Source of the DNA: Chiloscyllium plagiosum
Taxonomy: Eukaryota
DNA: 20,000 nucleotides
Reading direction: 5' to 3'
Assembly (NCBI RefSeq): GCF_004010195.1
Contig: NC_057752.1
Location: forward strand, 4,518,390-4,538,389
Below the pieces are notes generated by a model. The model did no database searches. It was not told the DNA's origin and worked only from the letters and a program-made list of their open reading frames with translations. Made by a program: the position numbers and the translations under genes. Of the stretch, positions 279 through 20,000 are shown one piece after another; the stretch's first letter is position 1; the number at the start of each line of letters is the position of its first letter.

Positions 279-459
279 TCCAACAGGTTTAATTGGAAGC
301 ACACTAGCTTTCGGAGCGCTCCTTCATCAAGTGATCACCCGATGAAAGGGCATCGCTCCGAAAGCTAGTGTGCTTCCAATTAAACCTGTTGGACTATAAC
401 CTGGTGTTGTGTGATTTTGAACTTTGTACACCCCAGTCCAACACCGGCATCTCCAAATC
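279..459. mobile_element. Short palindromic Penelope-derived element, family A (inverted pseudo-LTR pair plus tail)
   Basis: Inverted repeat 279-318 / 354-393. The right arm continues to ...ttgaacttt plus a 34-nt tail gtacaccccagtccaacaccggcatctccaaatc. Same sequence as the PLE terminus at 10745-10830. Degenerate TSD ctgattactctc (269-280) / ctgatgattctc (460-471). Both hammerhead cores are mutated (TTGATGA, CCGATGA). Confidence 0.85.
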
Positions 460-626
460 CTGATGATTCTCAGCAGGTATTGGTCCCATCCAGCTATAGC
501 TACACTTTCCATCTAAAAGTAAACCACTGTAAAGGCGTTGCTCTTAATGTGATTCACTCAGCAGTCCTGTGATTTGCAATCCTGCTGGTATATATAATTT
601 TATCTGAATGCGTTTGTGGTTTTCAG

Positions 627-726
627 AACAGGATGTTATGCAAATATATCTGCGACTTGCCAAGGGCTATCAGAACAACAGCGATCAGCATGTTGTTTAA
701 AGGGGATGAAAGGCAACACCTGCTGA
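627..726 (+). other. Possible terminal coding exon of an upstream gene (unidentified)
   Basis: Acceptor gtttgtggttttcag|AAC at 626/627 in non-repeat sequence. Short open frames QDVMQIYLRLAKGYQNNSDQHVV* (stop 698-700) or Cys-rich TGCYANISATCQGLSEQQRSACCLKGMKGNTC*. AATAAA downstream at 1577-1582. No homolog recognised. Confidence 0.25.
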
Positions 727-1745
727 ATTCGCATGTTGCCAAGGTGCCTGTTTGAGCAGAGTCCTCGGCGATAACATGCACTAACACTACACCCCTGAAT
801 ACGCTTTGATCCTTGTCTTGCTGAATTTACAAAATGCAAAGTATGAAGTCACACCTTCTTTTAGAAGCCATACGTATGTCGAGAATCAGGATTTCTCACA
901 CAAACGGAACCACCTGAACATCTTCTCAGCCTTCAATGTAAATCAATTTATCTACCCTTAAGATGCCAAGTTCAAGTAGGTAATAGTCAGCAAAAGTTTC
1001 GTTCGATTGAAGTGTGTGGGTTAGTTGAAAAAGCCTAAAAAAAACGCTGACAGTCATCTTCCCGTCCAGAGTGATGTGGCCTGCCGATGACAGTAATGTT
1101 AACACTTACAGCGCAAAGTGTAAACCCTCATGCATCAATAACATTCTCCAGTATATCCACTCATGGCCGGCAGGGGGACTTCTTATACTGGCTTCCCAGA
1201 GATTAGAAACACGCTAATGAGATGGCAGAAACAAAATGACCTCCAGTTTTCACAGTGTTGATGTGGAAAACAATAATGGTGCCTGCTCTACTGTTGACTG
1301 CTCCTTTAACCAGCTTTATTCCAAGCTAAGCATAAACAATCTCGCATTCAACTCTGGGAAAGACCACTGTCTGCAGTCTTTCTGCCAAAGTACAAGGCTC
1401 CATTCAATTATCAAACCCTCTCATTGCCTCAAAATAAATTGTATCCTGTATGAGTAGACAATGCCTTTGGTTGCAACTGCAGGGAATGTCCAATTCCAGT
1501 GTTTGCTTTCCTTTGTATGCAAAGACTATACAAAACTGTTTTAGTACCTTGTGTATGTATCTAAGGATTTTTTATGAATAAAGTATATTTTTGCAATTAA
1601 AACATTTGTTGCTGTCTGCTATATCTCTGAGCTCATGTGAAGGACATTCAGGATTGACATTTTAATTTTCTGACTGGTTTAACTAATCTCTATAGTCAGA
1701 ATGTTCCCCTGCACATTCAGTTTTCGGAGCTGCCAGATCCCACAA

Positions 1746-1809
1746 TTTCCTGCTTTCATGTCCTAATTATATTGTTGCAACAATATAATTAGGACATGAA
1801 AGCAGGAAA
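1746..1809. repeat. Perfect 64-bp palindrome with no spacer
   Basis: tttcctgctttcatgtcctaattatattgttg|caacaatataattaggacatgaaagcaggaaa: 32/32 complementary, centre between 1777 and 1778. Confidence 0.97.
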
Positions 1810-2022
1810 CAGTAGTCTGCCTTCTGCCAAAGGCATTAACTGGTGCTAGGGTAAATTTCATCTGTTAGCTGGGCTAAGGGAGGGCTATCTGGTACTTCGA
1901 TCACATCAGGGGCATCACGACTGAACCTAGTTCTGCCATCAGTCAGCTGGAGGAGGTGAGCTGGAACAAAAAACGTATAGAAGGCTGTATCGTGAAGCAG
2001 CCAACAATGCCTTTCAGGCTTT

Positions 2023-2227
2023 GATTTGGAGATGCCGGTGTTGGACTGGGGTGTACAAAGTTAAAAATCGTACAACACCAGGTTATAGTCCAACAGGTTT
2101 AATTGGAAGTACACTAGCTTTCGGAGTAACTCTTCTTCATCAGGTGAAGGAGCGTCGCTCCGAAAGCTAGTGTGCTTCCAATTAAGCCTGTTGGACTATA
2201 ACCTGGTGTTGTGTGATTTTTAACTTT
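2023..2227. mobile_element. Short palindromic Penelope-derived element, family A, with 12-bp TSD
   Basis: 34-nt tail (2023-2056), then inverted arms 2057-2126 / 2158-2227. Flanked by perfect direct repeat tttcaggctttg (2012-2023 and 2226-2237). Confidence 0.9.
2112..2146 (-). ncRNA. Minimal hammerhead ribozyme motif (stem II degenerate)
   Basis: Minus strand reads CAC CUGAUGA agaagaguuacucc GAA AGCU A GUG. Core nucleotides intact, stem II altered. Confidence 0.55.
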
Positions 2228-2364
2228 TCAGGCTTTGTGCCTGGTGTATATTTGCAACTTGTGATCTGAGATAGCACAGGTCACAGTTCATTGTACACCC
2301 TATTTGCAAAGAGATACTGGAAGAGTGAGTCAACAGAGTTGACTCCACAAGCTGACACCTTCAT

Positions 2365-2845
2365 TCCCCGCTTGCCTGGATGGGTGTGGCTCAAACAACA
2401 CTCACAAAGCTTGATACCATCCAGGACAAAGCAGCCCCAGTTTTTTGGCACCCAATCCATCATCACTGACACACAGTGGCAGGAGTAAATACCAAGATGT
2501 ATTGCAGTAACTCGCTGAGGCACCTTTGGCAGCACCTTCCAAATCTGTGACCTCTACCACCTAGAGGGACAAGGGCAGCAGGTACATAGGAACACCACCC
2601 CCTACAAATTCCCCTCTAAACCAAACACCATCCTGACTTGGAAATACATTAGCCATTCCTTCCATTAGCCAGGTTCAAAATCCTGGAATTCCCTTCCTAA
2701 CAGCACTGTGGTTTTACCCGCACCACATATGGACTGCAGTGGTTTATGAAGGCAGCTCACCACCATTTTCTTAAAGGCAGGTAGTGATGGGCAACAAATT
2801 CTGGCCCAGCCAGGGACACACATATCCAATGGAATAACATATAGA
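2365..2845 (+). mobile_element. Degenerate 3' end of CR1/L2-clade LINE
   Basis: Decayed ORF2 C-terminus (cttgcctggatg..., aagcttgataccatccaggacaaagcagcc = KLDTIQDKAA, aaaatcctggaattcccttcct = KSWNSLP) and 3'UTR gatgggcaacaaattctggcccagccag. Confidence 0.7.
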
Positions 2846-2929
2846 AATGATCTGGCTGAACCATCAGGAATAGAGTCAGTAAAGCATTAGACCCTTTCAA
2901 ACTGATCAGACTTAGCTACAGTATGGAGT

Positions 2930-3050
2930 GCTGAGATCTCAGTGGATTATGGTGGTGGAGATTACAGAGATAGGAAGGGGACAAAGCCATGAAGGGATTT
3001 GGAGGTGGAGAATTTAAAAACTTCGGTGTTACTGGACCAAGTGTCAATAT
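2930..3050 (-). mobile_element. L2-like LINE fragment
   Basis: Reverse complement (ttttaaattctcc...aaatcccttcatggc...ctatctctgtaatct) resembles 4168-4240 in this window. Confidence 0.5.
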
Positions 3051-3057
3051 ATATTGG

Positions 3058-3345
3058 AGGGGCAGCATGGTGGCTCAGTGGTTAGCACTGCTGCCTTGGG
3101 ACCCAGGTTCGATTCCAGCCTCGGGTAACTGTCTGTGTGGACTTTGCACGTTCTCCTGTGTCTGTGTGGGTTTCCTCTGGGTGCTCCTGTTTCCTCCCAC
3201 AGTCTAAAGATATGCAGGTTAGGAAGATTGGCCATGCTAAATTGCCCGTAGTGTCCAGGGATGTGCAGTATAGGTGGATTAACCATGGGAAATGCAGAGT
3301 TACAGGGATGGTGTGGATCTGGTGGGATGCTCTTTTGAAAGTCAC
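3058..3345 (+). mobile_element. HE1-type tRNA-derived SINE
   Basis: Pol III A box TGGCTCAGTGG (3071-3081), B box GGTTCGATTCC (3106-3116), core gggtttcctctgggtgctcctgtttcctcccacagtc, ggccatgctaaattgccc. Homologous to the copies at 7834 and 14288. Confidence 0.88.
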
Positions 3346-4164
3346 GGAAGGGTAGAGATAAGAGGCCATAAAATGGTGCAAAGACCAAGTGATGTGAGGC
3401 AACATCTTTAAGGTGATCTCACAGTGTCTGCCATACATTTGGTGCTTCACTCACGAACAAACTGCTGCACACCCTGCAGCATAACTAGGGCATTCAGTTT
3501 TGAGGATAAGTAGTAATTTAATGCGAGTAAAGTGACTAAGAATTGAAAAGTATTCATTTACAACCTGATAGCAATTAGATGGGGGATTATTGGATGTCAA
3601 TCAAATATGGTTTGAACCTGACAATCACATTCCTCAGGTGACATTCCGTGGTTTAAAAGATGTCTGAAGCTGATTGTTCCACAGGAATTTTGACCAACAG
3701 TTGTAATCAATCCTGTTTGTAACCAGATACTTATATAACTTAGAGAAAAAAAAGGTTGAAGAACATAGCATGACTCCTCTTGATGTTCCACATATTTCTC
3801 ATTCTTTTAAACTGAAGCCTCACTAGTTTAATAGTGCTATCACCTTGACTGCTGTGCAGAGATGAGGTCAAAGAACCTTTCTTTATCTATTTTGCTGTTA
3901 GCGCTGAAAGACCTGTAATATTTTCCGTCATTGGTAGCCCCAACCCCGCACCCCTGATGCTCTGAAGGAGGTGACTTCTGCTGGGTTCAGGTTCACAGAT
4001 ACTAAAAGCATCCTGATACCTAAATCACTTGCATGGTCATTCCTCATATCTGATCTCAGACAATGTTAACAGGCACCACAGACAAGCCCAATCTTCTCCT
4101 CACCCAGTAGCTACATGTATGCACTTTCCAGCAGAGCACAGTGAATTTGTTCGGAGAAAAACTA

Positions 4165-4500
4165 ATTGATTTAAAATTTCTCATACCTTGTTTTCAAATC
4201 TTCCATGGCCCTTTCTTTCACTATTTATGCAACCTTTTGCAGTTCTACATTCTCTGTATTTCTCCAATTCTGACCTCGAAAGCATCCACAATTTTAATCG
4301 CTCCACCACTAGTGTCTGTGCTGCTGCCTTTAAACTCTGGAATACCCTCCCTAAACTTCTGCCTTTTATTTTCTCCTTTAAGTCCTTCCTTAAAACTTAT
4401 CTCAGTGACAATTCTTTTTGGTCATCTGTCCTAATATCTCCATATATATCAAACGTAATACTCCCATGAAGCAACTTGGGACTTTTATATAGTGTCCTTA
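4165..4500 (+). mobile_element. L2-like LINE 3' end (degenerate)
   Basis: gatttaaaatttctcatacc...ttcaaatcttccatggcc (FKIL..FKSLHG-like), aaactctggaataccctccct (KLWNTLP), ttccttaaaacttatctc (FLKTYL). Confidence 0.65.
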
Positions 4501-4518
4501 ACTTATTAAAATGCTGGT

Positions 4519-5108
4519 TATAGAATCATAGAGATATACAGCTTTGATCCAACTCATCCATGCTGAGCAGAGATCCCAAATAAATCGAGTTCCATTTGCC
4601 AGCACTTGGCCCATATCCCTCTAAACCCTTCCTATTCATATACCCATGCAGATGCCTTTTAAATGCTTTAATTGTACCAGCCTCCACCACATCCTCTGGG
4701 AGTTCATTCCATACATGCACTACCCTCTGCGTGAAAAAAATGCCCCTTAGGTCCCTTTTAAATCTTTCCCCTCTCATCTTAACCCTATGCCCTCCAGTTT
4801 TGCACTCCCACACCCGTGGGAAAAGACCTTGTCGATTCCTGCTGAAGGGCTTTTGCCTGAAACGTCGATTCTTCTGCTCCTCAGCTGCTACCCGAGCTGC
4901 TGTCCGTTTCCAGCACCACACTCTTGAGTCTGATCGCCAGCATCTGCAATCCTCACTTTCTCCACCTTGTCTATTTACCCTATCCATGCCCCTCATGATT
5001 TCATAAACCTCTATAAGGTCACCCCTCAGCCTTCGACGCTCCAGGGAAAACAGTTCCAGCCTATTCAGCCTCTCCCTATAGCTCAAACCCTGGCAACATC
5101 CTTGTAAA
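4519..5108 (-). mobile_element. CR1/HER1 LINE 3' fragment, interrupted by a PLE-derived insert
   Basis: ORF SYRERLNRLELFSLERRRLRGDLIEVYEIMRGMDRV...FFTQRVVHVWNELPEDVVEAGTIKAFKRHL is a typical CR1 ORF2 C-terminus. 3' tail ctctatgattcta. Confidence 0.92.
4834..4963 (+). mobile_element. Single-arm Penelope-derived element, family B, nested in CR1
   Basis: Flanked by perfect TSD accttgtc (4826-4833 / 4964-4971). Starts with a hammerhead-like core CTGCTGA-a-GGGC-tttt-GCCT-GAA-ACGT-C (4839-4866, one core substitution). Ends with tail ...cagcatctgcaatcctcactttctcc. Confidence 0.87.
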
Positions 5109-5335
5109 CTAGTTGTTAATTTTCTCCTCTCATGGGCAATGTATAGCTAATGAAGTGAACAGACCACTCTTTCTCTATCTTCTATGATTCTTTGGGGCAT
5201 TTTTTCTTATAGCTTTAAGTGTGAAAAGCTAATTTATATACAACACTTCCAGAAATTCTAGTGCTATTCACTTTAGTACCTTGGCCACAGTCTTTTAGAA
5301 GGATAGCATGGATGAGGGTATTCAGTTCTGTGTAA

Positions 5336-5455
5336 AGTTCTGATGAACTTTCACTGGCCCAAAAGGTTCATATTCAATCTCTCTCCACAGATCGTGCCTG
5401 ACCTGCTGAGTGTTTCTAGCATTTTCTTACTTCGAACATCTGGAGCATTTTGCTC
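5336..5455 (+). mobile_element. Old, degenerate PLE-terminus remnant (related to family B)
   Basis: agttCTGATGA at 5336-5346, followed by ...ctctccacagatcgtgcctgacctgctgagtgtttctagcatt, similar to gatgctgcctgacctgctgcgcttttccagca of family B. Confidence 0.5.
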
Positions 5456-6198
5456 TTGGTCAAAGTAGAATATTAATTGTGTGGTTCATTATTTCGCTTC
5501 CAGCATGCAGGTTTCCACTTCTAATGACCTGGTCTTTTTCTGAAAATAGTGTTTTTTGTGACCAGCATATAAATTGAAAACAATGGCGAAAGAGCCTGAT
5601 TTGTAACATGTTTGTGACGAAGGCCAGAATATTTCGTGATTCCATACATCTTATTGTGTTGTTTAATAATCGCAGTAGAATGCCCTGGTGAAAGGTTAGA
5701 GTGGTTGGAGAGTTTAAGAACACATATTCAAAAAAATCAAAGTTTCAGCATTTAAGATGATTCACCTGTTAATACATGTTGGACAATGCATTTGTAAACA
5801 TCATTGTTCGTAATGCTATTTTATGGAAGTGCTATTACAGGTATTTGTTTGCGGCCATATAATTTATGCTGGTACACTACTTCATTTGTAATTCCTTTGG
5901 GGCAGTAGGGTGGGGACCAGGGAAAGCACCCCACCGAGACCACAGTTCTCAATCGGACGAATTCAAACGCAAGAGCTTCCATTGCTTCAGCAACCAATAC
6001 CTTCATTCAGATGCCTCCAACTGTTTGATTGATGCCTCATTCATTTTCTTGTTCATCCCGGTGAACTTATGTGCCCATGATTTTGGGAGCCTTTGCCAAA
6101 CCTGAGATAACCAATGAGCATTGACCTACACCTTGGGAGTTGCCAAGCTATAGCTTGCATGTGGCTCTTTTACACAAAAGATAGGGCTGTCAAAACTA

Positions 6199-6420
6199 AA
6201 TAGGTTCTTCTGCTGTAGCGCGTTTTGTTAACGCGAATTCGCTATAATGCGATTGACGAATCGGGGCCACTGTTTCTAAAGCGCAAACTTTTTAAACATG
6301 TGTTGGCTGTAACGCAATTGCATCGCCAACACTTTAAGTGCTGATTCTAAAGGGCAATTTTTCTGTAATGCGGGGTTTCTGCAAGAATGCAGCCATTGCG
6401 TTGTAGAAGAACTACCACTA
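6199..6420. mobile_element. Tigger/TcMar-like non-autonomous DNA transposon (MITE) remnant
   Basis: Imperfect terminal inverted repeats (ggttcttctgctgtagcgc ... gcgttgtagaagaactacc), TA at the ends, internal hairpin tgttggc...gccaaca (6301-6331), CpG-richer than its flanks. Confidence 0.55.
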
Positions 6421-6744
6421 TGGGTGCAACTCATCCTCAATCTCAACCACTGCAAAATGCCCTCCTCACAATTTACATAGGTACTAAGCAGGAAAGGTAT
6501 ATTAACACATTCTATTCAGGGAAATAGTGAGAGCTGCAGTAAGTTTTTATTGCAGCTGTTGAAATGTATTCCTGTGACATGACCACTGCAGTCAGTTATG
6601 GTACAGCACCGCCAGTCTGAACAGCCACAATAATTTTGATAATTAATTCCTGTGGGAATCACGGTCGTGAGTGGTAGGAGACGATTAAATAACTATGGAA
6701 AGATGGTGGTTTATTGGTAATGTTACTGGACTACTATTCCAGAA

Positions 6745-6909
6745 GAGAGAAAGTGAGGGCTGCAGATGCTGGAGATCAGAGCTGAAAATGTGTTGCTGGA
6801 AAAGCGCATGAGCCCTTCCTGAAGAAGGGCTCATGCCCGAAACGTTGATTCTCCTGTTCCTTGGATGCTGCCTGACCTGCTGCGCTTTTCCAGCAACACA
6901 TTTTCAGCT
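6745..6909. mobile_element. Short palindromic Penelope-derived element, family B
   Basis: 35-nt tail 6745-6779. Perfect inverted repeat agctgaaaatgtgttgctggaaaagcgca 6780-6808 / 6881-6909. Inner hairpin 6806-6836. TSD ctactattccagaa (6731-6744) / ctagtattccagaa (6908-6921). Confidence 0.9.
6816..6850 (+). ncRNA. Minimal hammerhead ribozyme motif
   Basis: UUC CUGAAGA a GGGC ucau GCCC GAA ACGU U GAUU. All core positions conform, palindromic ACGU stem III, stem I weak. Confidence 0.7.
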
Positions 6910-7156
6910 AGTATTCCAGAAACTGAGACTCGTGTTTTAGGGACATGGGTTTGAATTCCACCATAGCAGATAGAGAAATTTGAATTCAGGTAAAAATCTG
7001 CAATTAAGCACTGGACTAACGGAGACCGTCTAACCACTCTCGATTGTCATAAAAGCCGTATGGTTCACTAATCTTCTTTAGGGAAGGAAATCTGCCATCC
7101 TTACCTGTTCTGGCCTACAGCCCCACCCAATGTGGTTGAAGCCTGAAAGTACTGTA

Positions 7157-7500
7157 CAGCCAATGAAGTACTTTTAAAATGTAGTCATTGTTGTATTGTA
7201 GAATACACAGCAGTCAATTTGCACACAGTACAATCCCACAAACAGCAATGGGATAATGGCCAGATAATCTCATCTTGTGATTTGTATGAGCAAGTAATAT
7301 TCGCAAGGACACCAGAAAGAACACCCTTGCTTTTCTTCCCAATTGTATCAGGAAATCTTTTACTTTCGTTTGAGAGGGGAGACAGAACCTTGGGTTTAAC
7401 ATCTTACACAAAGCAAAATGCAACATGCCCTGAATACTGCATTAGATTGTTAACCGAGAAGTTTGTACTCAGGACTCTGGAATGGGACTTGAACCATAAA
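7157..7500 (-). mobile_element. Deu-domain SINE (SacSINE1/AmnSINE-like), degenerate
   Basis: Reverse complement contains cattgctgtttgtgggattgtactgtgtgcaaattgactgctg and gactacattttaaaagtacttcattggctg. Homologous to 12248-12325. Confidence 0.65.
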
Positions 7501-7509
7501 ATCAGGGGG

Positions 7510-7635
7510 CCATTGCTGTTGGTGGGAACTCACTGTGAGCAACTTGGTTGCTGTATTTCCGAAATGACAACAGTGACTACATTTCAAATGCACTTCACTG
7601 ATTGTAGAACATTTTGAGGGAGTCTTGTGGTTGTG
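7510..7635 (+). mobile_element. Deu-domain SINE 3' fragment
   Basis: cattgctgttggtgggaactcactgtgagcaacttggttgctg...acagtgactacatttcaaatgcacttcactgattg. Confidence 0.6.
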
Positions 7636-7778
7636 CCTCTCAGAGGAGAACTGCCCTCTCTCTGCCTTGGTGGCTTCATTTTAACCTGAACAAGTATTAA
7701 CCTCAGAACAACAGCATCTTTAAATAACCTATAATAACTGCACTTTCCTACACTGGCTGGCAACAGATAAAGCGGGAG

Positions 7779-7832
7779 GAAATTAAAAGACCTTTGAATT
7801 TTTCAAGTGAAATTAAAAGACCTTTGAATTTT
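7779..7832 (+). repeat. 24-bp direct tandem duplication (30-bp period)
   Basis: gaaattaaaagacctttgaatttt at 7779-7802 and 7809-7832. Confidence 0.95.
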
Positions 7833-7833
7833 C

Positions 7834-8142
7834 GCACGGTGGCTCAGTGGTTAGCACTGCTGCCTCACATCGCCAGAGACCCGGGTTCAATTCCAGCCTC
7901 GGGTGACTGACTGTGTGGAGTTTGCACATTCTCCCCGTGTCTGCGTGGGTTTCTTCTGGGTGCTCCGGTTTCCTCCCACAGTCCAAAGATGTGCAGGTCA
8001 GGTAAATTGGACATGCTAAATTCCCTGCAGTGTTAGGTGGATTAGTCAGGTGTAAATATGGAGGGGGGGTTCTCTTTGGAGGGTTGGTGTGGACTGGTTG
8101 GGTCGAAGGGCCTGTTTCCACACTGCAGGGAATCTAATCTAA
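7834..8142 (+). mobile_element. HE1-type tRNA-derived SINE, near full length
   Basis: A box 7840-7850, B box GGTTCAATTCC 7884-7894, LINE-derived tail gggtcgaagggcctgtttccacactg, terminal (aatct)n. Confidence 0.9.
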
Positions 8143-8443
8143 ATTCGCTTTTACAATTACCATTCATCTGGTTAAAAAGAAGCAAACCTCGATCATCCCA
8201 TTCTAATCCCTTTGCAATCAAATCAATCTCAAATGTTGGGAAGCCTTGCTTTAGAGATTTAAGGTTTTCAAAATAAAACTGTCAGTTTTGATTCAACTTT
8301 ACACATCAAGGGAATGATCATTTACAGTCTTTAATCCAGCTCAGCCATTCAACGCAGATTGTCAGGAGTAAATGCTCCAGGTATACACTTACAATTTTAC
8401 AATGGTTGCATTGTCTTCACCAAGGGTACGGACATCAGCAATA

Positions 8444-8628
8444 GGTGAAAGTGAGGACTGCAGATGCTGGAGATCTGACAGCAGGTCAGGCAGCATCCCA
8501 GGAGCAGGAGAATCGACGTTTCGGGCATAAGCCCTTCATCAGGAATGGCTTATGCCTGAAACGTCGATTCTCCTGCTCCTGGGATGCTGCCTGACCAGCT
8601 GTGCTTTTCCAGAACCACACTCTCGACG
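8444..8628. mobile_element. Short palindromic Penelope-derived element, family B
   Basis: Tail ggtgaaagtgaggactgcagatgctggagatc. Inverted arms ~8479-8533 / 8547-8601. Degenerate TSD acatcagcaata (8432-8443) / acattaacaata (8630-8641). Confidence 0.88.
8511..8546 (-). ncRNA. Minimal hammerhead ribozyme motif, intact core
   Basis: Minus strand AUUC CUGAUGA a GGGC uuau GCCC GAA ACGU C GAUU, with the canonical GUC cleavage triplet. Confidence 0.78.
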
Positions 8629-8888
8629 TACATTAACAATACCCTATTTTTCTTTGGGGCTTGGTGCTAAAGTCCACTTCCACTCAAGCAAAGCCATCCC
8701 TGCTTGGTGGAGCCTCCTTCTGCCTTCTGCAGCAGGGCATGGGAGGGGAAAATGGGTCAGTAACACAGGCATCTGAGAATTTGTGTCCTCCCATCCTGCC
8801 ATTTACGTGTAGTCAGACCTAGCTTGGTTGATGATAAGAAGGACGCTCCCTGTTAAATCCTTCCTGTCCATCTGATTGCCTCTCTATG

Positions 8889-9060
8889 TTGCCCTCAAGG
8901 TGGCTGCAGTGGAAGTGACCATTGCCCACTTTCGCTGGACTATGCCTTTGCAAAGAAGGTCTGGGAAGAAAGAGATGCGGGGGTTTTGTCAAGGTTCATC
9001 CTGAGCAACTCTGTAATGCATGGGCTGTTGTCAGTGACACACACTGAGACATGTAATTGG
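8889..9060 (+). mobile_element. Tx1/L1-like LINE fragment (C-terminal zinc-knuckle region)
   Basis: Frameshifted CPQGGC..TIAH...AFAKKVW, resembling the CCHC motif of L1/Tx1 ORF2. Confidence 0.5.
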
Positions 9061-9604
9061 AGGGCCGTCCAGAGGGGCAGCAGGAGGGTGTACTGGGGGT
9101 TGTGGATTTGCACAAGGAGTGCAAATGCTAAAATAACCCCTCTGAGACCCTCTTGTTTGGGAATGGACAATGTCTTATCTGTAACGGTTCTCGTCATCCA
9201 TTAAGAGCAGGCTACACAAGCTCAACTGTGTGGAAAAGGGATACACTTGGATCTGTTTATAATTTCGCAAAACCTTTCTCAGCTTTATCAATCAGCATCT
9301 CTCCCTCTTCTGTCATGAGGATAGCTTGAGCAATTGTCACAGATACTTTCAGCTCTTTGTAAATCTAGTATCATGTAGAAACATTTATCCAATGCTCAGA
9401 ACAGGTGCTGAAAGAAACCTAACAGGACTGGAATCTGCACCTGTAGTTTCGGTGCCTTTTCTGTGATGCCAAAACAATGCAGTTGAATTGAGCTAACCTT
9501 GAAATGGGTGTGTCAGTGTTTAAGTTTAAGCTTCAAGCTCACTGAGCTCAGTTTTTGCAAACACAAAGTTTCCAGACTCCAATATTATCTCTAGTCAATC
9601 AATG

Positions 9605-9989
9605 AAATTGGTGGTGTAATGGACACTGATGAAGGTTATGAGGGGCAAGGATAGGGTGAATAACCAAGGTCTTTACCCCAGGTTAGGGGAGTCCAAAACC
9701 AGAGGACATAGGTTTAGGGTGAGAGGAGAAAGATTTAAAAGGGACCTAAGGGGCAATTTTTCCATGCAGAGGGTGGTGCGTGTATGAAATGAGCTGCCAG
9801 AGGAAGTGGTGGAGGCTGGTACAATTACAACATTTAAAAGGCATCTGGATGGGTACATGAATAGGAAGGGTTTAGAGGGATATGGACCAAATGCTGGCAA
9901 CTGGGACGAGATTAGGTTGGGATATCTGGTCGGCATGGACAAGTTGGACCGAAGGGTCTGTGTCAGTGCTATACATCCCTAGACTCTAT
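9605..9989 (+). mobile_element. CR1/HER1 LINE 3' fragment with internal deletion
   Basis: KIGGVMDTDEGY joined directly to MRG.DRVNNQGL...KRDLRGNFSMQRVVR...ELPEEVVEAGTITTFKRHLDGYMNRKG. Highly similar to the reverse complement of 4519-5000. Confidence 0.9.
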
Positions 9990-10792
9990 AAATCCAGCTG
10001 ACCGTTTTCAGTCATTTAGTTTGGCCCTTTTATTGTGCAGCAAATGGAGTACTTTGCCATTCTTGGCACTCAAGAGTACAGCACTTTGTCCATGGGTGCC
10101 CAGAATGATAAGGAATAACGTTTTCTTGCTGAGTGAGATCCTGGAGTTGGTGAGCTCATTGCCAATGATCGTTATCACTGTGCTGCCTGCCCACGGGCAC
10201 ATAGTTTGCCAACCTCAATTAATGTTGAACCATGAAAGAAAACAAGGAGAGAAGCCCATTGTCCCATTTGACCTGTTGAGTCCCACTTGCAAGAAGAGTG
10301 TGCTAACCCCATGAGTTTAGTAACTTAATGTAAGATAACATAGCATAATTCAAGACAAGGATCAAAGTTGAAAGAAATTGAAGAGCTGTGATCGAACACA
10401 TGGACAATAGTTTGGTTTCTTGGGCCCTTGACATCATCTGAAACTTCAGCCATGCCAACCCAGATCTCATCTCAGCAGGTATTTGAGTGTGTGGCAGCCT
10501 GCCCTCACTCTCATTTACCAACAGGAGCTTGAGACATTGAGGGATTAAACTTTGGCTGATCTTCCCAGCCATTGCCCAAAGTCAGAGGAGTTTAGGCCAA
10601 TTGCAGGACTACTGGTAAAGTTCCAATTGAGAGGACTAACACGATGCTGACTGGGAATAAAAGCGAGGATCTTTATGCTCAGTTACGTGTTAGGAGTGAT
10701 ATCTCATTTATGCAGTTGTACTCTTCACTATCTTGGAATATCAGAGTTAAAAATCACACAACACCAGGTTATAGTCCAACAGGTTTATTTGG

Positions 10793-10833
10793 AAGCACTA
10801 GCTTTCGGAGCGCTGCTCCTTCATCAGGTGATT
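10793..10833 (-). ncRNA. Minimal hammerhead ribozyme motif, intact core, in PLE pLTR
   Basis: Minus strand AAUCAC CUGAUGA a GGAGC agc GCUCC GAA AGCU A GUGCUU: stem I CAC/GUG, 5-bp stem II, palindromic AGCU stem III, predicted cleavage after the A at 10799. Confidence 0.8.
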
Positions 10834-11328
10834 GTGGAGAATAAGATTGTAAGACACAGAATTTATAGCAAAAGTTTACAGTGTGATGTAACTGAAATTA
10901 TATATTGAAAAAGACCTGGATTGTTTGTTAAGTCTCTCATCTGTTAGAATGACCATGTTGGTTTCAGTTCTTTCATATGGAAATCGCAAAACCTTTTTTA
11001 AAGTTACATTCTCAAGTGAACTTTAACAAGGATGTCCTGAGGCATGGCATGGTGTCATGTCGGCCCAGATAAGGTATTGAAGGTGTTAAATCCCTGTGAG
11101 GCTGTCTGCGCCGCAATGGTCAGACTGATTCTAATCTAAAAAACGGATTTACAGAATTTTACATGGATTCATGTAGTTTTTGAGCAAAGTAAAATGTAAT
11201 TCTGCAAGTACAAATTCATCCCACAAACTTATATGTGTATGTGTGCATGTGGGGGAGGGGGTGGTTATGAGTGTATGTGTGTGAGTGTAAAGGGGTTTAA
11301 GTCTGTGAGAGTGTGTGGTGCTGTGGGG

Positions 11329-11952
11329 TCACCCGTAGTGTGACATGAACCCAAGGTCCCGGTTAAGGTCATTCCCATGGGAACCGAACTTGGCTATCAG
11401 CCTCTGCTTGGCCACTTTGCGTTGTTGCCTGTCCCGAAGTCCACCTTGGAGGACGGTCACCCAAAGGTCCGAGGTCGAATGTCCCAGGCCGCTGAAGTGT
11501 TCTCCGATTGGGAGGGAACACTCCTGTCTGTTGACTGTTGTGCGGTGTCCATTCATTTGTTGCCGTAGCCTCTGTTTGGTCTCACCAATGTGCCATGCCT
11601 CAGGACATCCTTGCCTGCACCGTATGAGATAGATAACATTGGCTAAGTCACATGAGCACCTGCCACATACATGGTGGGAGGTGTCCCCACATGTAATGGC
11701 GGTATCCTTGTCGACATTCTGACATGTCTTGCAGCGCCTACCGTGATAGGGTTGTATGGAGTTGTCCTGAGAGCCGGGCAGTTTGCTACAAACAATGATC
11801 TGTTTGAGGTTTGGTGGCTGTTTAAAGGCGAGAGGTGGAGGTGTGGGGAAGGTCTTGGCGAGGTGCTCATCCTCATTGGTAATGTGTTGCAGGCTGCGAA
11901 GAACATGGGCGTAGTTTGTCAGCTTCTGGGAAGTACTGGACAATGAAATCAT
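11329..11952 (-). pseudogene. PLE ORF C-terminus: Cys-rich linker + GIY-YIG endonuclease
   Basis: RCKTC...CSCDLANVIYLIRCRQGCPEAWHIGETKQRLRQQMNGHR...IGEHF...LNRDLG. Frameshift near 11908 (upstream frame reads FIVQYFPEADKLR). YIG appears as HIG. Confidence 0.9.
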
Positions 11953-11974
11953 TTGGAATATCAGCTGTAGGTTA

Positions 11975-12385
11975 TTTGGTCATACTCTTGCCTCTCAACT
12001 TGAGCTCTGCTTCTAGTGTTATGTCTTATTCCAGAGCTTGCACACTAATATTGAAGCCAGCACTACAATGCGACACTGTCAGAGCTGTCAATGCTTAGAA
12101 GTGGCATTAAATCGAGACCCCCACCCCCCTACCCTCCCAGATAGATGTAAAAGATCCATGGCACTATCTTGGAGAAAAACAGGAGAGTTTTTCTTGGTGT
12201 CCTTGCCAATGTTTATCCCTTGATCATCAAATAAAAATGTTAATGCTCACGTTGCTGTTTGTGGGAGCTTGCTGTGCACAATTTAGCTGTTGTTATTATA
12301 GATTATAACAGATTACATTTCAAAACCTCGTCAATGTCTGAATTTTGAGCACTGAAAAATGTGATAGAAGTGCAAGGCTTTTTCA
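11975..12385 (+). mobile_element. Deu-domain SINE (SacSINE1-like)
   Basis: gatgtaaaagatccatggcactat...ggtgtccttgccaatgtttatccct...gttgctgtttgtgggagcttgctgtgcacaatt. Confidence 0.7.
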
Positions 12386-14287: not shown

Positions 14288-14595
14288 GGGCGGCCCGGTG
14301 ACTCAGTGGTTAGCACTGCTGCCTCACAGCACCAGGGACCTGGCTTCCATTCCACCCTCATGCGACTGTCTGTGTGGGTTTCCTCCCACAGTCCAGAGCT
14401 GTGCAGGTTAGGGTGGATTGGCCATGCTAAATTGCCCCGTCATGTGAAGGTTATGTGGGCTGGCCATGGTAAAAAACACATGTGGGATTACAGGGATGGG
14501 CGGGGGGGCGGGCGGGTGGTGGATGATCTTCAGAGGGTTGGTGTGGACTCAATGGGCCGAATGGCCTCTTTCTGCATTGTAGGCATTCTGTGACC
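14288..14595 (+). mobile_element. HE1-type SINE with internal deletion
   Basis: ggtgactcagtggttagcactgctgcctcacagcaccagggacc; gactgtctgtgtg fused to ggtttcctcccacagtcc; tail gggccgaatggcctc. Confidence 0.85.
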
Positions 14596-16977: not shown

Positions 16978-18194
16978 TACAGCTTCCATACCGATTTCCC
17001 TCGGTCTGAGTTGGGAGGAAAGACCTCAATTGCTCTGAAACTGTTCACTGTATCTGAAGAGTGGCCTTTTCATGCAGCCCTGAACTCTCTGCTGTGATGT
17101 AAAAGAACTGTCCGTGCCCTTCCGATACCCTGGGACTGTATGGGCATTCTTGCCCTCTCATGGTGCCCAAATCTGGGGAGAAAGGGAGCACTGCTCACCT
17201 AAACACCAATCCTATCTGTAACTGGTTATGAACATAATCTGAGTGCTTTGTTTGTACTGTGGCTGGTTGTTCACAGTCTGGGAGTGCACGGACATCAAGA
17301 CAGGAGGCCACAATATAATTAGGATGCGCCAGCAATAGGAACAAACTTGCCCTTCACAAAACTATGTTTACTAATTCGCTCAAGCCTTTCCGAGTGTTCA
17401 CAATTTTCAGTCTCTGCCACAGTTTTCTGTGAGCCCTGTCATAAGTGTGTGCAGCCCATTATTTTGACTTGGCCATTTGGAACCCTAACAAGCCTGCCCT
17501 TTGACCTCTGTTGGTGACAATTGCACCAACATACCTTTACATTTTGCCTTTGATGTAATAAAATGGTGGAATGACAGAAATGAAAGTTGGGTAAGAAGCT
17601 AGAACTGGGGTAGGGCTGAGATCACAAAGGCTGTATGACTGCAGGTGCAAAGATAGAGAGCAGGCTAGAGCCATGAAGCAAGAAAATCTGGGGGATGGTC
17701 CCATGATTTTCACACTTTCAATGGGCTGGGAACTGCAGCTATGTCCCTTTTTTATCCTGTCAAAGGTACTGGAATGCCTGGTAAAAGCACCCGGGGTCAA
17801 GAAGGGATGATGGTGTTCATCCATTGTAAAAAATTTTCCACTGCTCTGTCTAAAGGGAGCTGCTTTAAAACTCGAAAAACTGCAAGAAGTGCAATAGGAT
17901 AGATCCAATAATAATTGACACGTGCCAAAAGCAAAAGTCCCCACCAAAGCCCAAAGTTCCTAAGAAGACCCAGGATATTGGAACTGTAATGTTCAGAATT
18001 TCTACCTCCTTGCCTTACATCGATATGCTTTTAAGGGATGGAGAGCGTTCTTACAAGACCACCCCAGACACCTTGGTACTTGGCTGAGGTTTGGTGTAAC
18101 TTGATCTCGGCCTAGCTTTCAGCTTATTCCAATCAGAAACTCTGTTCTTTAGCCATCATCATTTAGAGCATCAGCCTGGACTTTCTCAAGGAAT

Positions 18195-19339
18195 AGAACA
18201 AAGAACAAAGAACCTGACAGTACAGGAACAGGCCCTTCGGCCCTCTAAGCCTGCGCTGATCCAGATCCTCTATCTAAACCTGTCACCTATTTTCTAAGGG
18301 TCTGTATCCCTCTGCTCCCTGCGCATTCATGTATCTGTCTAGATACATCTTAAATGATGCTATTGTGCCCGCCCCTACCACCTCCGATGGCATCGCATTC
18401 CAGGCGCCCACCACTATCTGCGTGAAGAACTTTCCCCGTATATCTCCCCTAACCTTTACCCTTCTCACTTTGAACTCGTGACCCCTAGTAATTGATTCCT
18501 CTACCCTGGGAAAATGTTTCTTGCTATCCACCCTGTCTACACCTCTCATGATTTTGTAGGCCACAATCAGGTCCCACCTTAACTGCCTTCTTTCCAATGA
18601 AAATAATCCTAATCTACTCAACCTCTCCTCATAGCTAGCACCCTCCATACCAGGCAACATCCTGGTGAACCTCCTCTGCACCCTCTCCAAAGCATCCACA
18701 TCCTTTTGGTAGTGTGGTGACCAGAACGGTTCACAGTATTCTAAATGTGGCCGAATCAAAGTCTTATACAACTGTAATATGACCTGCCAACTCTTGTGCT
18801 CAATAACCGGTCCGAAGAAGGAAAGCATGCTGTATGCCTTCTTGACCACTCTACTGACCTGCATTGCCACCTTCAGGGAACAATGGACCTGAACACCCAG
18901 ATCTCTCTGCACGTCAATTTTCCCCAGGGCTTTTCCATTTACTGTATAGTTCGCCCTTGAATTGCATCTTCCAAAATGCATCTCCTCTTATTTGTCCGGA
19001 TTGAACTCCATCTGCCATTTCTCTCCAATCTGTCTATATTCTGCTGTATTCTCTGACAGTCCCCTTCACTACCTGCTACTCCACCAATCTTAGTGTCATC
19101 TGCAAACTTGTTAATGAGGCAACCTACACCTTCCTCCAAATCATTTATGTATATCACAAACAACAGTGGTCCCAGTACAGATCCCTGTGGGACACCACTG
19201 GTCACTGGTCTCCATTTTGAGAAGCTTTCTTCCACCACTACTCTCTGTCTCCTGTTACCCAACCAGTTCTCTATCCAGCTAGCTAGAATACCTTGGACTC
19301 CATGCGACCTTCTTCATCAGCCTACCATGGGGAACCTTA
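18195..19339 (-). mobile_element. CR1-clade LINE, 3' 1.15 kb of ORF2 (RT pseudogene)
   Basis: KVPHGRL...GVPQGSVLGPLLFVIYINDL...KFADDTKIGG; frameshift near 19020; ...LYKTLIRPHLEYC...LERVQRRFTRMLPG...; tail (ttctttg)n. Confidence 0.95.
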
Positions 19340-20000
19340 GTCCAAGAACTCCCCACCTACGTTCGGGACACCACCCACGCCCTCCACCTCCTCCATGATT
19401 TTCGCTTCCTCGGCCCCCAACGCCTTATCTTCACCATGGACATCCAGTCCCTATACACCTCCATCCCCCATCACGAAGGCCTCAAAGCCCTCCGCTTCTT
19501 CCTTTCCCGCCGTACCAACCAGTACCCTTCCACTGACACCCTCCTTCGACTGACTGAACTGGTCCTCACTCTTAACAACTTTTCTTTCCAATCCTTCCAC
19601 TTCCTCCAAACCAAAGGAGTAGCCATGGGCACCTGCATGGGCCCCAGCTATGCCTGCCTCTTTGTCGGATATGTGGAACAGTCCATCTTCCGCAGCTACA
19701 CTGGCACCCTCCCCCACCTTTTCCTCTGCTACATCGGTGATTGTATTGGCACAGCCTCGTGCTCCCATGAGGAGGTTGAACAGTTCATCCACTTTACTAA
19801 CACCTTCCACCCCGACCTCAAATTTACCTGGACCGTCTCAGACTCCTCCCTCCCCTTCCTAGACTTCTCCATTTCTATCTCGGACGACCGACTCAACACG
19901 GACGTATACTATAAACCGACCTGCTCCCACAGCTACCTAGATTACACCTCCTCCCACCCTGCACCCTGTAAAAACGCCATCCCATATTCCCAATTCCTTC
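19337..20000 (+). pseudogene. Penelope-like element reverse transcriptase fragment (runs off window)
   Basis: Open frame LVQELPTYVRDTTHAL...MDIQSLYTSIPH...QTKGVAMGTCMGPSYACLF...CYIGDC...LPFLD...YYKPT..HSYLDYTSSHP..CKNAIPYSQF. The catalytic YIDD position reads YIGD (19730-19741). Confidence 0.92.

Follow-up and report, generated by a model that had tools for sequence, protein, structure and literature searches.

Hammerhead-bearing fold-back inserts in Chiloscyllium plagiosum as probable insertion stubs of Penelope-like elements

Five short inserts carrying hammerhead ribozyme motifs were investigated in a 20,000-nt stretch of Chiloscyllium plagiosum NC_057752.1 (hereafter the window), animal DNA rich in retroelement debris, to which all copy comparisons are confined. 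They are very probably stubs of the hammerhead-bearing terminal module of Penelope-like elements (PLEs). The explanation that we prefer as a whole, and consider reasonably likely, is that these PLE stubs, flanked by target site duplications (TSDs), took their fold-back form at insertion, from complementary DNA (cDNA) that had run off the end of its RNA template. As elements the inserts are ordinary, being a reduced form of the known PLE insertion pattern, and their one non-trivial feature is the clustering of 5' ends at the hammerhead. The copies available for comparison are 4 fold-backs, 1 short monomer (B1) and 1 long copy.

Architecture of the inserts and their target sites

A preliminary description of this stretch had claimed five short inserts of two sequence families with flanking direct repeats. 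The inserts are real at about the places given, with the refined boundaries listed below, and both the families (A, with A1 and A2; B, with B1, B2 and B3) and the repeats were recovered. It had also described four of them as inverted dimers with two ribozymes reading outward. Four are indeed head-to-head fold-backs, with B1 as a monomer, but none of the four has two intact cores. Positions within a family are counted from the first C of CUGANGA in the hammerhead core (position 0), and each TSD was compared with 400 random intervals.

A1, 281-459, both strands: family A fold-back; left arm on the minus strand (-4 to about +52), right arm on the plus strand (-4 to the tail end), both cores mutated; blunt centre at 334/335 (GTGA/TCAC, -4 to -4), with the 36-nt tail solely on the right arm; TSD 269-280 / 460-471 (10/12, equalled by 3.75% of the random intervals).
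A2, 2024-2225, both strands: family A fold-back; tail arm on the minus strand (2147-2024), starting at -4, with the conserved core letters intact and stem II broken; short arm on the plus strand (2145-2225), starting at +4, without CUGA; -4 to +4 joint via a TCA/TGA overlap; TSD 2012-2023 / 2226-2237 (12/12, equalled by none of 400).
B1, 4834-4963, plus strand: family B monomer from -5 to the tail end, with one core mutation, sitting in a fragment resembling a long interspersed nuclear element (LINE); TSD 4826-4833 / 4964-4971 (8/8, equalled by none of 400).
B2, 6745-6911, both strands: family B fold-back; tail arm on the minus strand from +5, with a 47-nt internal deletion and no ribozyme; short arm on the plus strand from 6816, starting at -3 and with its core (6819) intact; centre with a TTC/GAA overlap; TSD 6735-6744 / 6912-6921 (10/10, or 13/14 extended; equalled by none of 400).
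B3, 8444-8625, both strands: family B fold-back; tail arm on the minus strand from 8546, starting at -4, its core intact (8542) and 26 nt deleted internally; short arm on the plus strand from 8543, starting at +5; TTC/GAA overlap as in B2, with the tail on the other arm; TSD 8428-8443 / 8626-8641 (13/16, equalled by 1.5% of the random intervals).

When the long copy treated below is included, TSDs flank six of six inserts; those of A1 and B3 are degenerate, and those of A2, B1, B2 and the long copy lie beyond all 400 random intervals. The left boundary of B1 is possibly up to 4 nt further in (alternative TSD, 11/12), and a paralogous LINE-like fragment at about 9600-9720 contains the B1 target once, being an analogue of the empty site. 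All four fold-backs carry the tail on one arm only (about 36 nt in family A, 35 nt in family B). The other arm terminates at what we call the short end, and the arms join head to head just upstream of the core or inside it.

Part of one arm was lost in three of the four fold-backs (47 nt in 6745-6818, 26 nt in 8444-8546 and about 30 nt in 281-334), which could have happened at insertion or by later hairpin deletion. Two of the tails (2024-2060 and 8444-8480, both on the minus strand) contain a pyrimidine-rich stretch followed by CAG/TCC, which looks like a splice acceptor and lies 14-24 nt short of the tail end.

Hammerhead cores

The hammerhead motifs claimed in the preliminary description are real. 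A strict descriptor (CUGANGA, stem II of at least 4 bp, GAA, a 4-nt palindrome and H) has three matches in the window (6819 plus, 8542 minus and 10827 minus), against an average of 0 over 30 Markov controls. Allowing one mismatch gives 5 matches versus 0.07, and allowing two gives 7 versus 0.6. The two-mismatch match at 8420 (minus) was discarded as a chance hit and that at 2141 (plus) as a junction artefact. The three strict matches are intact minimal type I motifs with core, stem II and palindromic stem III, and two of them are within the five inserts. Among the nine arms of these inserts, two cores are intact (B2 right and B3 left), four are spanned but mutated (A1 left at C3; A1 right at U4 and stem II; A2 left at stem II; B1 at A6), and three arms have their first base within the core (+4 in A2 right, +5 in both B2 left and B3 right); B2 left, through its 47-nt deletion, lacks GAAA as well. 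Apparent mutated cores in A2 right and B3 right were rejected, being the reverse complement of the partner arm. An Rfam search, suggested in the preliminary description, returned 19 matches, almost exclusively to generic microRNA (miRNA) hairpins, with none to a hammerhead family up to E 5; no Rfam model caught these motifs.

The idea that the inserts act as ribozyme dimers does not apply to them, because the two motifs of a head-to-head insert lie on different strands. A fold-back transcript contains a single sense motif preceded by its antisense. For stem II, the predicted pair probability is 0.99-1.0 when the intact B2 and B3 arms are taken alone but 0.00 in their fold-back transcripts; in the long copy it is 0.99. 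The value of 0.00 is also predicted for the nascent B2 and B3 fold-back prefixes. The arms of the fold-backs are predicted to pair with each other, and the stub hammerheads to be passengers. When two hammerhead monomers were cofolded without constraints, the outcome was stem II kissing or exchange structures rather than the stem III dimer, and it was not used. Published activity of such hammerheads is described as low or protein-dependent (PMC11167929, PMC4209133).

Relation to Penelope-like elements

The PLE origin proposed in the preliminary description has direct support in family A, whose end is found on an endonuclease-coding copy, and support from architecture in family B. That copy, of the parent type, and a decayed end of a third family were missing from the earlier list of parts.

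Long family A copy, 10745-11952, minus strand: 5'-truncated PLE of 1.2 kb, with a stretch coding for a CxxC linker and a GIY-YIG-type endonuclease (ending at 11329), followed by a 3' untranslated region (UTR) of about 500 nt with TATAAAT at -40, an intact hammerhead at 10827 and AATAAA at +38; TSD 10733-10744 / 11953-11964 (12/12).
Third family, 5336-5428, plus strand: decayed end of a PLE-type family related to B; CUGAUGA is present and the rest of the core is degenerate.

In the long copy, the family A arm runs on 1125 nt upstream, via the 3' UTR into the endonuclease-coding stretch, and the family A arms have 89-96% identity with its end. No inverted arm was found in this copy, which terminates at the short end without a tail. 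Over 195 aa, its coding stretch shares 69% identity with the C-terminus of a shark protein of 643 aa that has a reverse transcriptase (RT) domain. The endonuclease assignment comes via homologs, since the fragment in the window has no Pfam match of its own and a shorter homolog contains Pfam GIY-YIG. Among the best matches of the endonuclease-type fragment 11332-11979 are Chiloscyllium proteins with 77-82% identity, which marks it as shark-like. The linker reads C-X4-CKTC in the homologs P0001 and P0036, whereas the window copy no longer has the first Cys. For PLEs of the Neptune/Nematis type, a CX2-5CxxC linker has been described between RT and endonuclease (PMC8557442), and the CxxC linker of the homologs points to this type for family A. 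We also observed an exact 23-nt piece of the endonuclease-coding stretch inverted in the 3' UTR of the long copy (11027-11049 / 11591-11613).

A profile search of the window recovered five arms of family A and five of family B; one further match (E 0.5) was dropped. No family B end on a coding copy was found in the window. A PLE-type RT fragment at about 19340-20000 (plus strand), cut by the window edge, is 37% identical to the family A-type RT. It lies directly against a minus-strand LINE-like RT fragment and might represent the parent type of either family B or the third family. The third-family end has 56-65% identity with the B arms and was matched by nhmmer with a profile that included it; no TSD was found around it. 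In pattern scans, family A had no copies in metagenome contigs or prokaryote genomes, and family B had none in viral contigs. Two family B pattern matches in metagenome contigs, in bacterial-looking coding DNA, were dropped as chance. Sequencing runs containing this stretch exist; none of those listed is an RNA run, which says nothing about expression.

Possible run-off of cDNA at the hammerhead

Among the seven A and B arms that keep the start of the core, six begin at -5 to -3, where helix I has its 5' edge and the cleavage site is still about 30 nt downstream; the seventh is the long copy, with its 1125 nt of upstream sequence. All core-bearing stubs retain bases flanking the cleavage site (about +27) on either side, which indicates that the templates were uncut, as in the available account of PMC11167929. 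According to that account, the PLE protein nicks and extends both DNA strands, and reverse transcription begins at two internal RNA sites bounding the tail, on uncleaved RNA and with no need for hammerhead cleavage.

We suggest a start of the element RNA some 4-10 nt 5' of the hammerhead, and that cDNAs primed at two nicks, at the short end and at the tail end, would run off the RNA 5' end after 85-125 nt, a step that may be likened to the retroviral strong-stop product. Two such cDNAs, or a single one snapping back, could then be joined bluntly (A1) or via a 3-nt overlap, helix I strand to core (A2, B2 and B3), and gap filling would make the TSD. Only copies that passed the run-off point would reach the 3' UTR and the open reading frame (ORF), as in 10745-11952. 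For the run-off step at the RNA 5' end, taken by itself, we see the chances as evenly balanced. Consistent with it, TATAAAT lies at -40 in the long copy (0.5% under a Markov null for an 18-nt slot). The poly(A) signal is AATAAA at +38 in the long copy and ATTAAA at the same place in A1 and A2, and the last 40-80 nt of the element lie beyond this signal, as expected if they were copied from an RNA 5' leader.

Several observations weigh against this model. The TATA box was noticed post hoc, and the same 504 nt contain another TATAWAW, at -77. The usual TATA spacing of 30 nt would put the start at about -10 to -8, not at -4. The putative RNA start at the hammerhead is read from DNA, and family B has no coding parent in the window. 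The left arm of A1 is 30 nt too short to reach the short end, and B2 and B3 have internal deletions in their tail arms, none of which the model explains. In Drosophila virilis, the Penelope start site lies upstream of helix I and is separated from it by 46 nt plus a 75-nt intron (PMC2377424, PMC4209133), and a start at the hammerhead is therefore not general.

Other readings of the same ends were considered. It is unlikely, in our judgement, that the stubs are at once fossil strong-stop products, from PLE RNA starting at the hammerhead, and a re-transcribed, PLE-mobilised class resembling short interspersed nuclear elements (SINEs), with the palindrome rebuilt by two-strand priming at each insertion. 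Also unlikely is a SINE-like origin on its own, in which monomer stubs starting at the RNA 5' end, with an internal promoter and priming sites, are re-transcribed and the fold-back is rebuilt each time. The 5' ends at -5 to -3 would agree with it, as would B1, a complete monomer from -5 to the tail with a TSD; an internal promoter was reported in D. virilis Penelope (PMC2377424), and a short RNA suffices as template in vitro (PMC11167929). However, such stubs are without the upstream TATA-like site, the poly(A) signal of family A precedes the priming sites, and the A stubs are as near to the coding copy as to each other, so that no separate non-autonomous lineage is visible.

Random 5' truncation has a similarly small probability. 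The pile-up at the hammerhead would then come from RT stalling, from cDNA snap-back at 3-nt core stems or from a splice junction at helix I. The 3-nt overlaps at three of the four centres could form a cDNA mini-hairpin, self-priming has been proposed for the palindromic junctions of PLEs (PMC3846280), and the D. virilis intron ends at helix I (PMC4209133). Nevertheless, the ends lie beyond the structure, on its 5' side, where an RT would not be expected to stall, and those of B1 and A1 lie there without overlap with the core. Against a splice acceptor at -4, the only long copy has CAA rather than CAG immediately upstream of that position, and the centres showed no additional exon sequence.

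Propagating element or built anew

Between the two options left by the preliminary description, an element mobilised in trans or stereotyped abortive PLE insertions, the second fits better, given the one-sided tail, the inverted arm, the TSD and four differing structures. We hold it to be quite probable that each fold-back was built during its own insertion and not inherited from a palindromic master, and the inserts are likely dead-end by-products of insertion rather than a self-spreading element. All four fold-backs differ, with no whole-element structure shared (n = 4). The preliminary description had taken a recurring junction as the mark of propagation. In the window, the TTC/GAA centre (-3/-4 to +5) does recur in B2 and B3, but B2 carries its tail on the arm that starts at +5 and B3 on the one that starts at -4, and the deletions are private (47 versus 26 nt). 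A common centre with opposite tail arms favours independent formation. The junction test is not a clean one, for centres are expected to recur from run-off and microhomology even without propagation; because overlaps set by the sequence recur on their own, tail polarity and diagnostic bases are needed. The stem II loop is TCAT in both B2 arms and TTAT in both B3 arms, and the left arm of B2 is identical at 39 of 41 positions to its own right arm versus 29 of 39 to the right arm of B3.

On the other hand, such an excess of likeness within a copy is slight or missing in other comparisons. The B3 arms are alike at 53 of 56 positions (+5 to +60) versus 52 and 49 of 56 to B2 right, and family A has no within-copy excess (50/54 and 73/81 within copies versus 89-98% between them). 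Later gene conversion could also make the arms of one copy alike, and the comparison rests on 4 fold-backs, 1 short monomer and 1 long copy.

The opposite possibility, a non-autonomous palindromic family similar to miniature inverted-repeat transposable elements (MITEs), in which PLE protein acting in trans would re-insert transcripts of entire fold-backs, seems improbable to us. The size is stereotyped, the TTC/GAA centre is common to B2 and B3, and precedents exist in the non-autonomous PLE derivative MRC1 of Chlamys (PMC8557442), in cargo flanked by pseudo-long terminal repeats (pLTRs) and moved in trans (PMC3846280), and in retrozymes (bioRxiv 10.64898/2026.07.22.740005). Nonetheless, no structure is common to any two of the four fold-backs, B2 and B3 having their tails on opposite arms and their deletions private, and the transcript would form a long duplex (minimum free energy of -80 to -142 kcal/mol), likely masking the priming sites. 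Non-LTR retrozymes, self-cleaving and circularising tandem hammerhead repeats, share the type I hammerhead, the relation to PLEs, the lack of coding capacity and long TSDs, but are very improbable here, where the motifs are minimal rather than canonical, the arms are on opposite strands and the window has no head-to-tail repeats.

Significance and neighbouring features

The stubs are valuable as a footprint of the poorly understood insertion reaction of PLEs. If their 5' ends mark the start of the RNA, PLEs would pass through a short run-off cDNA as LTR elements do, and this, if true, would explain the pLTR, the element ends beyond the poly(A) signal and the head-to-head inversions. Such hairpins also call for care in annotation, as they score as miRNA precursors and resemble MITEs. 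Judged by titles and the beginnings of abstracts, none of the papers listed in literature searches is devoted to minimal fold-back stubs, to a MITE-like description of them or to a strong-stop step in PLEs, though supplements may show such structures.

Other repeats were observed in the window:

1746-1809: perfect loopless palindrome of 64 nt, unrelated to families A and B, with no TSD found; 18 nt of it resemble 17307-17324.
3060-3330, 7829-8135 and 14288-14590: three copies of a SINE-like repeat, with a head that is presumably tRNA-like, by its appearance.
4542-5100, 9638-9990 and 18283-19313: LINE-like RT fragments, B1 being inserted in one of them; Pfam RVT_1 at 18942-19313.

Comparison with known systems

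Like MITEs, the inserts are short, non-coding, hairpin-shaped and flanked by TSDs. MITEs have terminal inverted repeats reaching both ends. MITE identity was rejected for the inserts, which have asymmetric ends with the tail on one side, TSDs of variable length and a retroelement origin. MITEs are mentioned as an analogy in bioRxiv 10.64898/2026.07.22.740005. With the non-LTR retrozymes of that source and of PMC7229834, the inserts share being short, non-coding, hammerhead-bearing and PLE-derived. Retrozymes, however, are described as head-to-tail tandems with canonical hammerheads, whereas these are inverted or single, with minimal motifs; the head-to-tail tandem with a complete hammerhead in consecutive units, by which retrozymes are recognized, has no instance in the window.

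The motifs are like the minimal type I pLTR hammerheads of metazoan PLEs (PMC4209133) in CUGANGA, the extra base before stem II, G10.1-C11.1, the palindromic 15.2-16.2 and a short helix I. That source describes pairs of motifs on opposite strands in Schistosoma, with 100-700 bp between them, but for the most part single motifs that are dispersed and come from truncated PLEs. Here, in contrast, helix I has only 2-3 contiguous bp, and 0-10 bp separate the motifs of an opposite-strand pair, most such pairs being incomplete. As in the Poseidon element PAc of Anolis (PMC11167929), two end points bound the tail, the hammerhead is upstream of the priming sites and the template is uncut. Unlike PAc, family A has a CxxC linker before the endonuclease (Neptune/Nematis, not Penelope/Poseidon), and the available text on PAc does not discuss fold-back stubs or 5'-end clustering.

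The closest pattern is that of endonuclease-bearing PLEs, in which a pLTR, an adjacent inverted 5'-truncated copy, a one-sided tail of 30-40 bp and a TSD are found together (PMC8557442, PMC3846280). The inserts resemble these units in the head-to-head arms, the palindromic or overlapping junction, the tail of 35-36 nt on one arm, the TSD of 8-16 bp and the presence of the same end on a coding copy. They differ from the examples seen in those sources, which keep the ORF between the repeats, in being only 130-200 bp long and in having their ends clustered at the 5' edge of the hammerhead.

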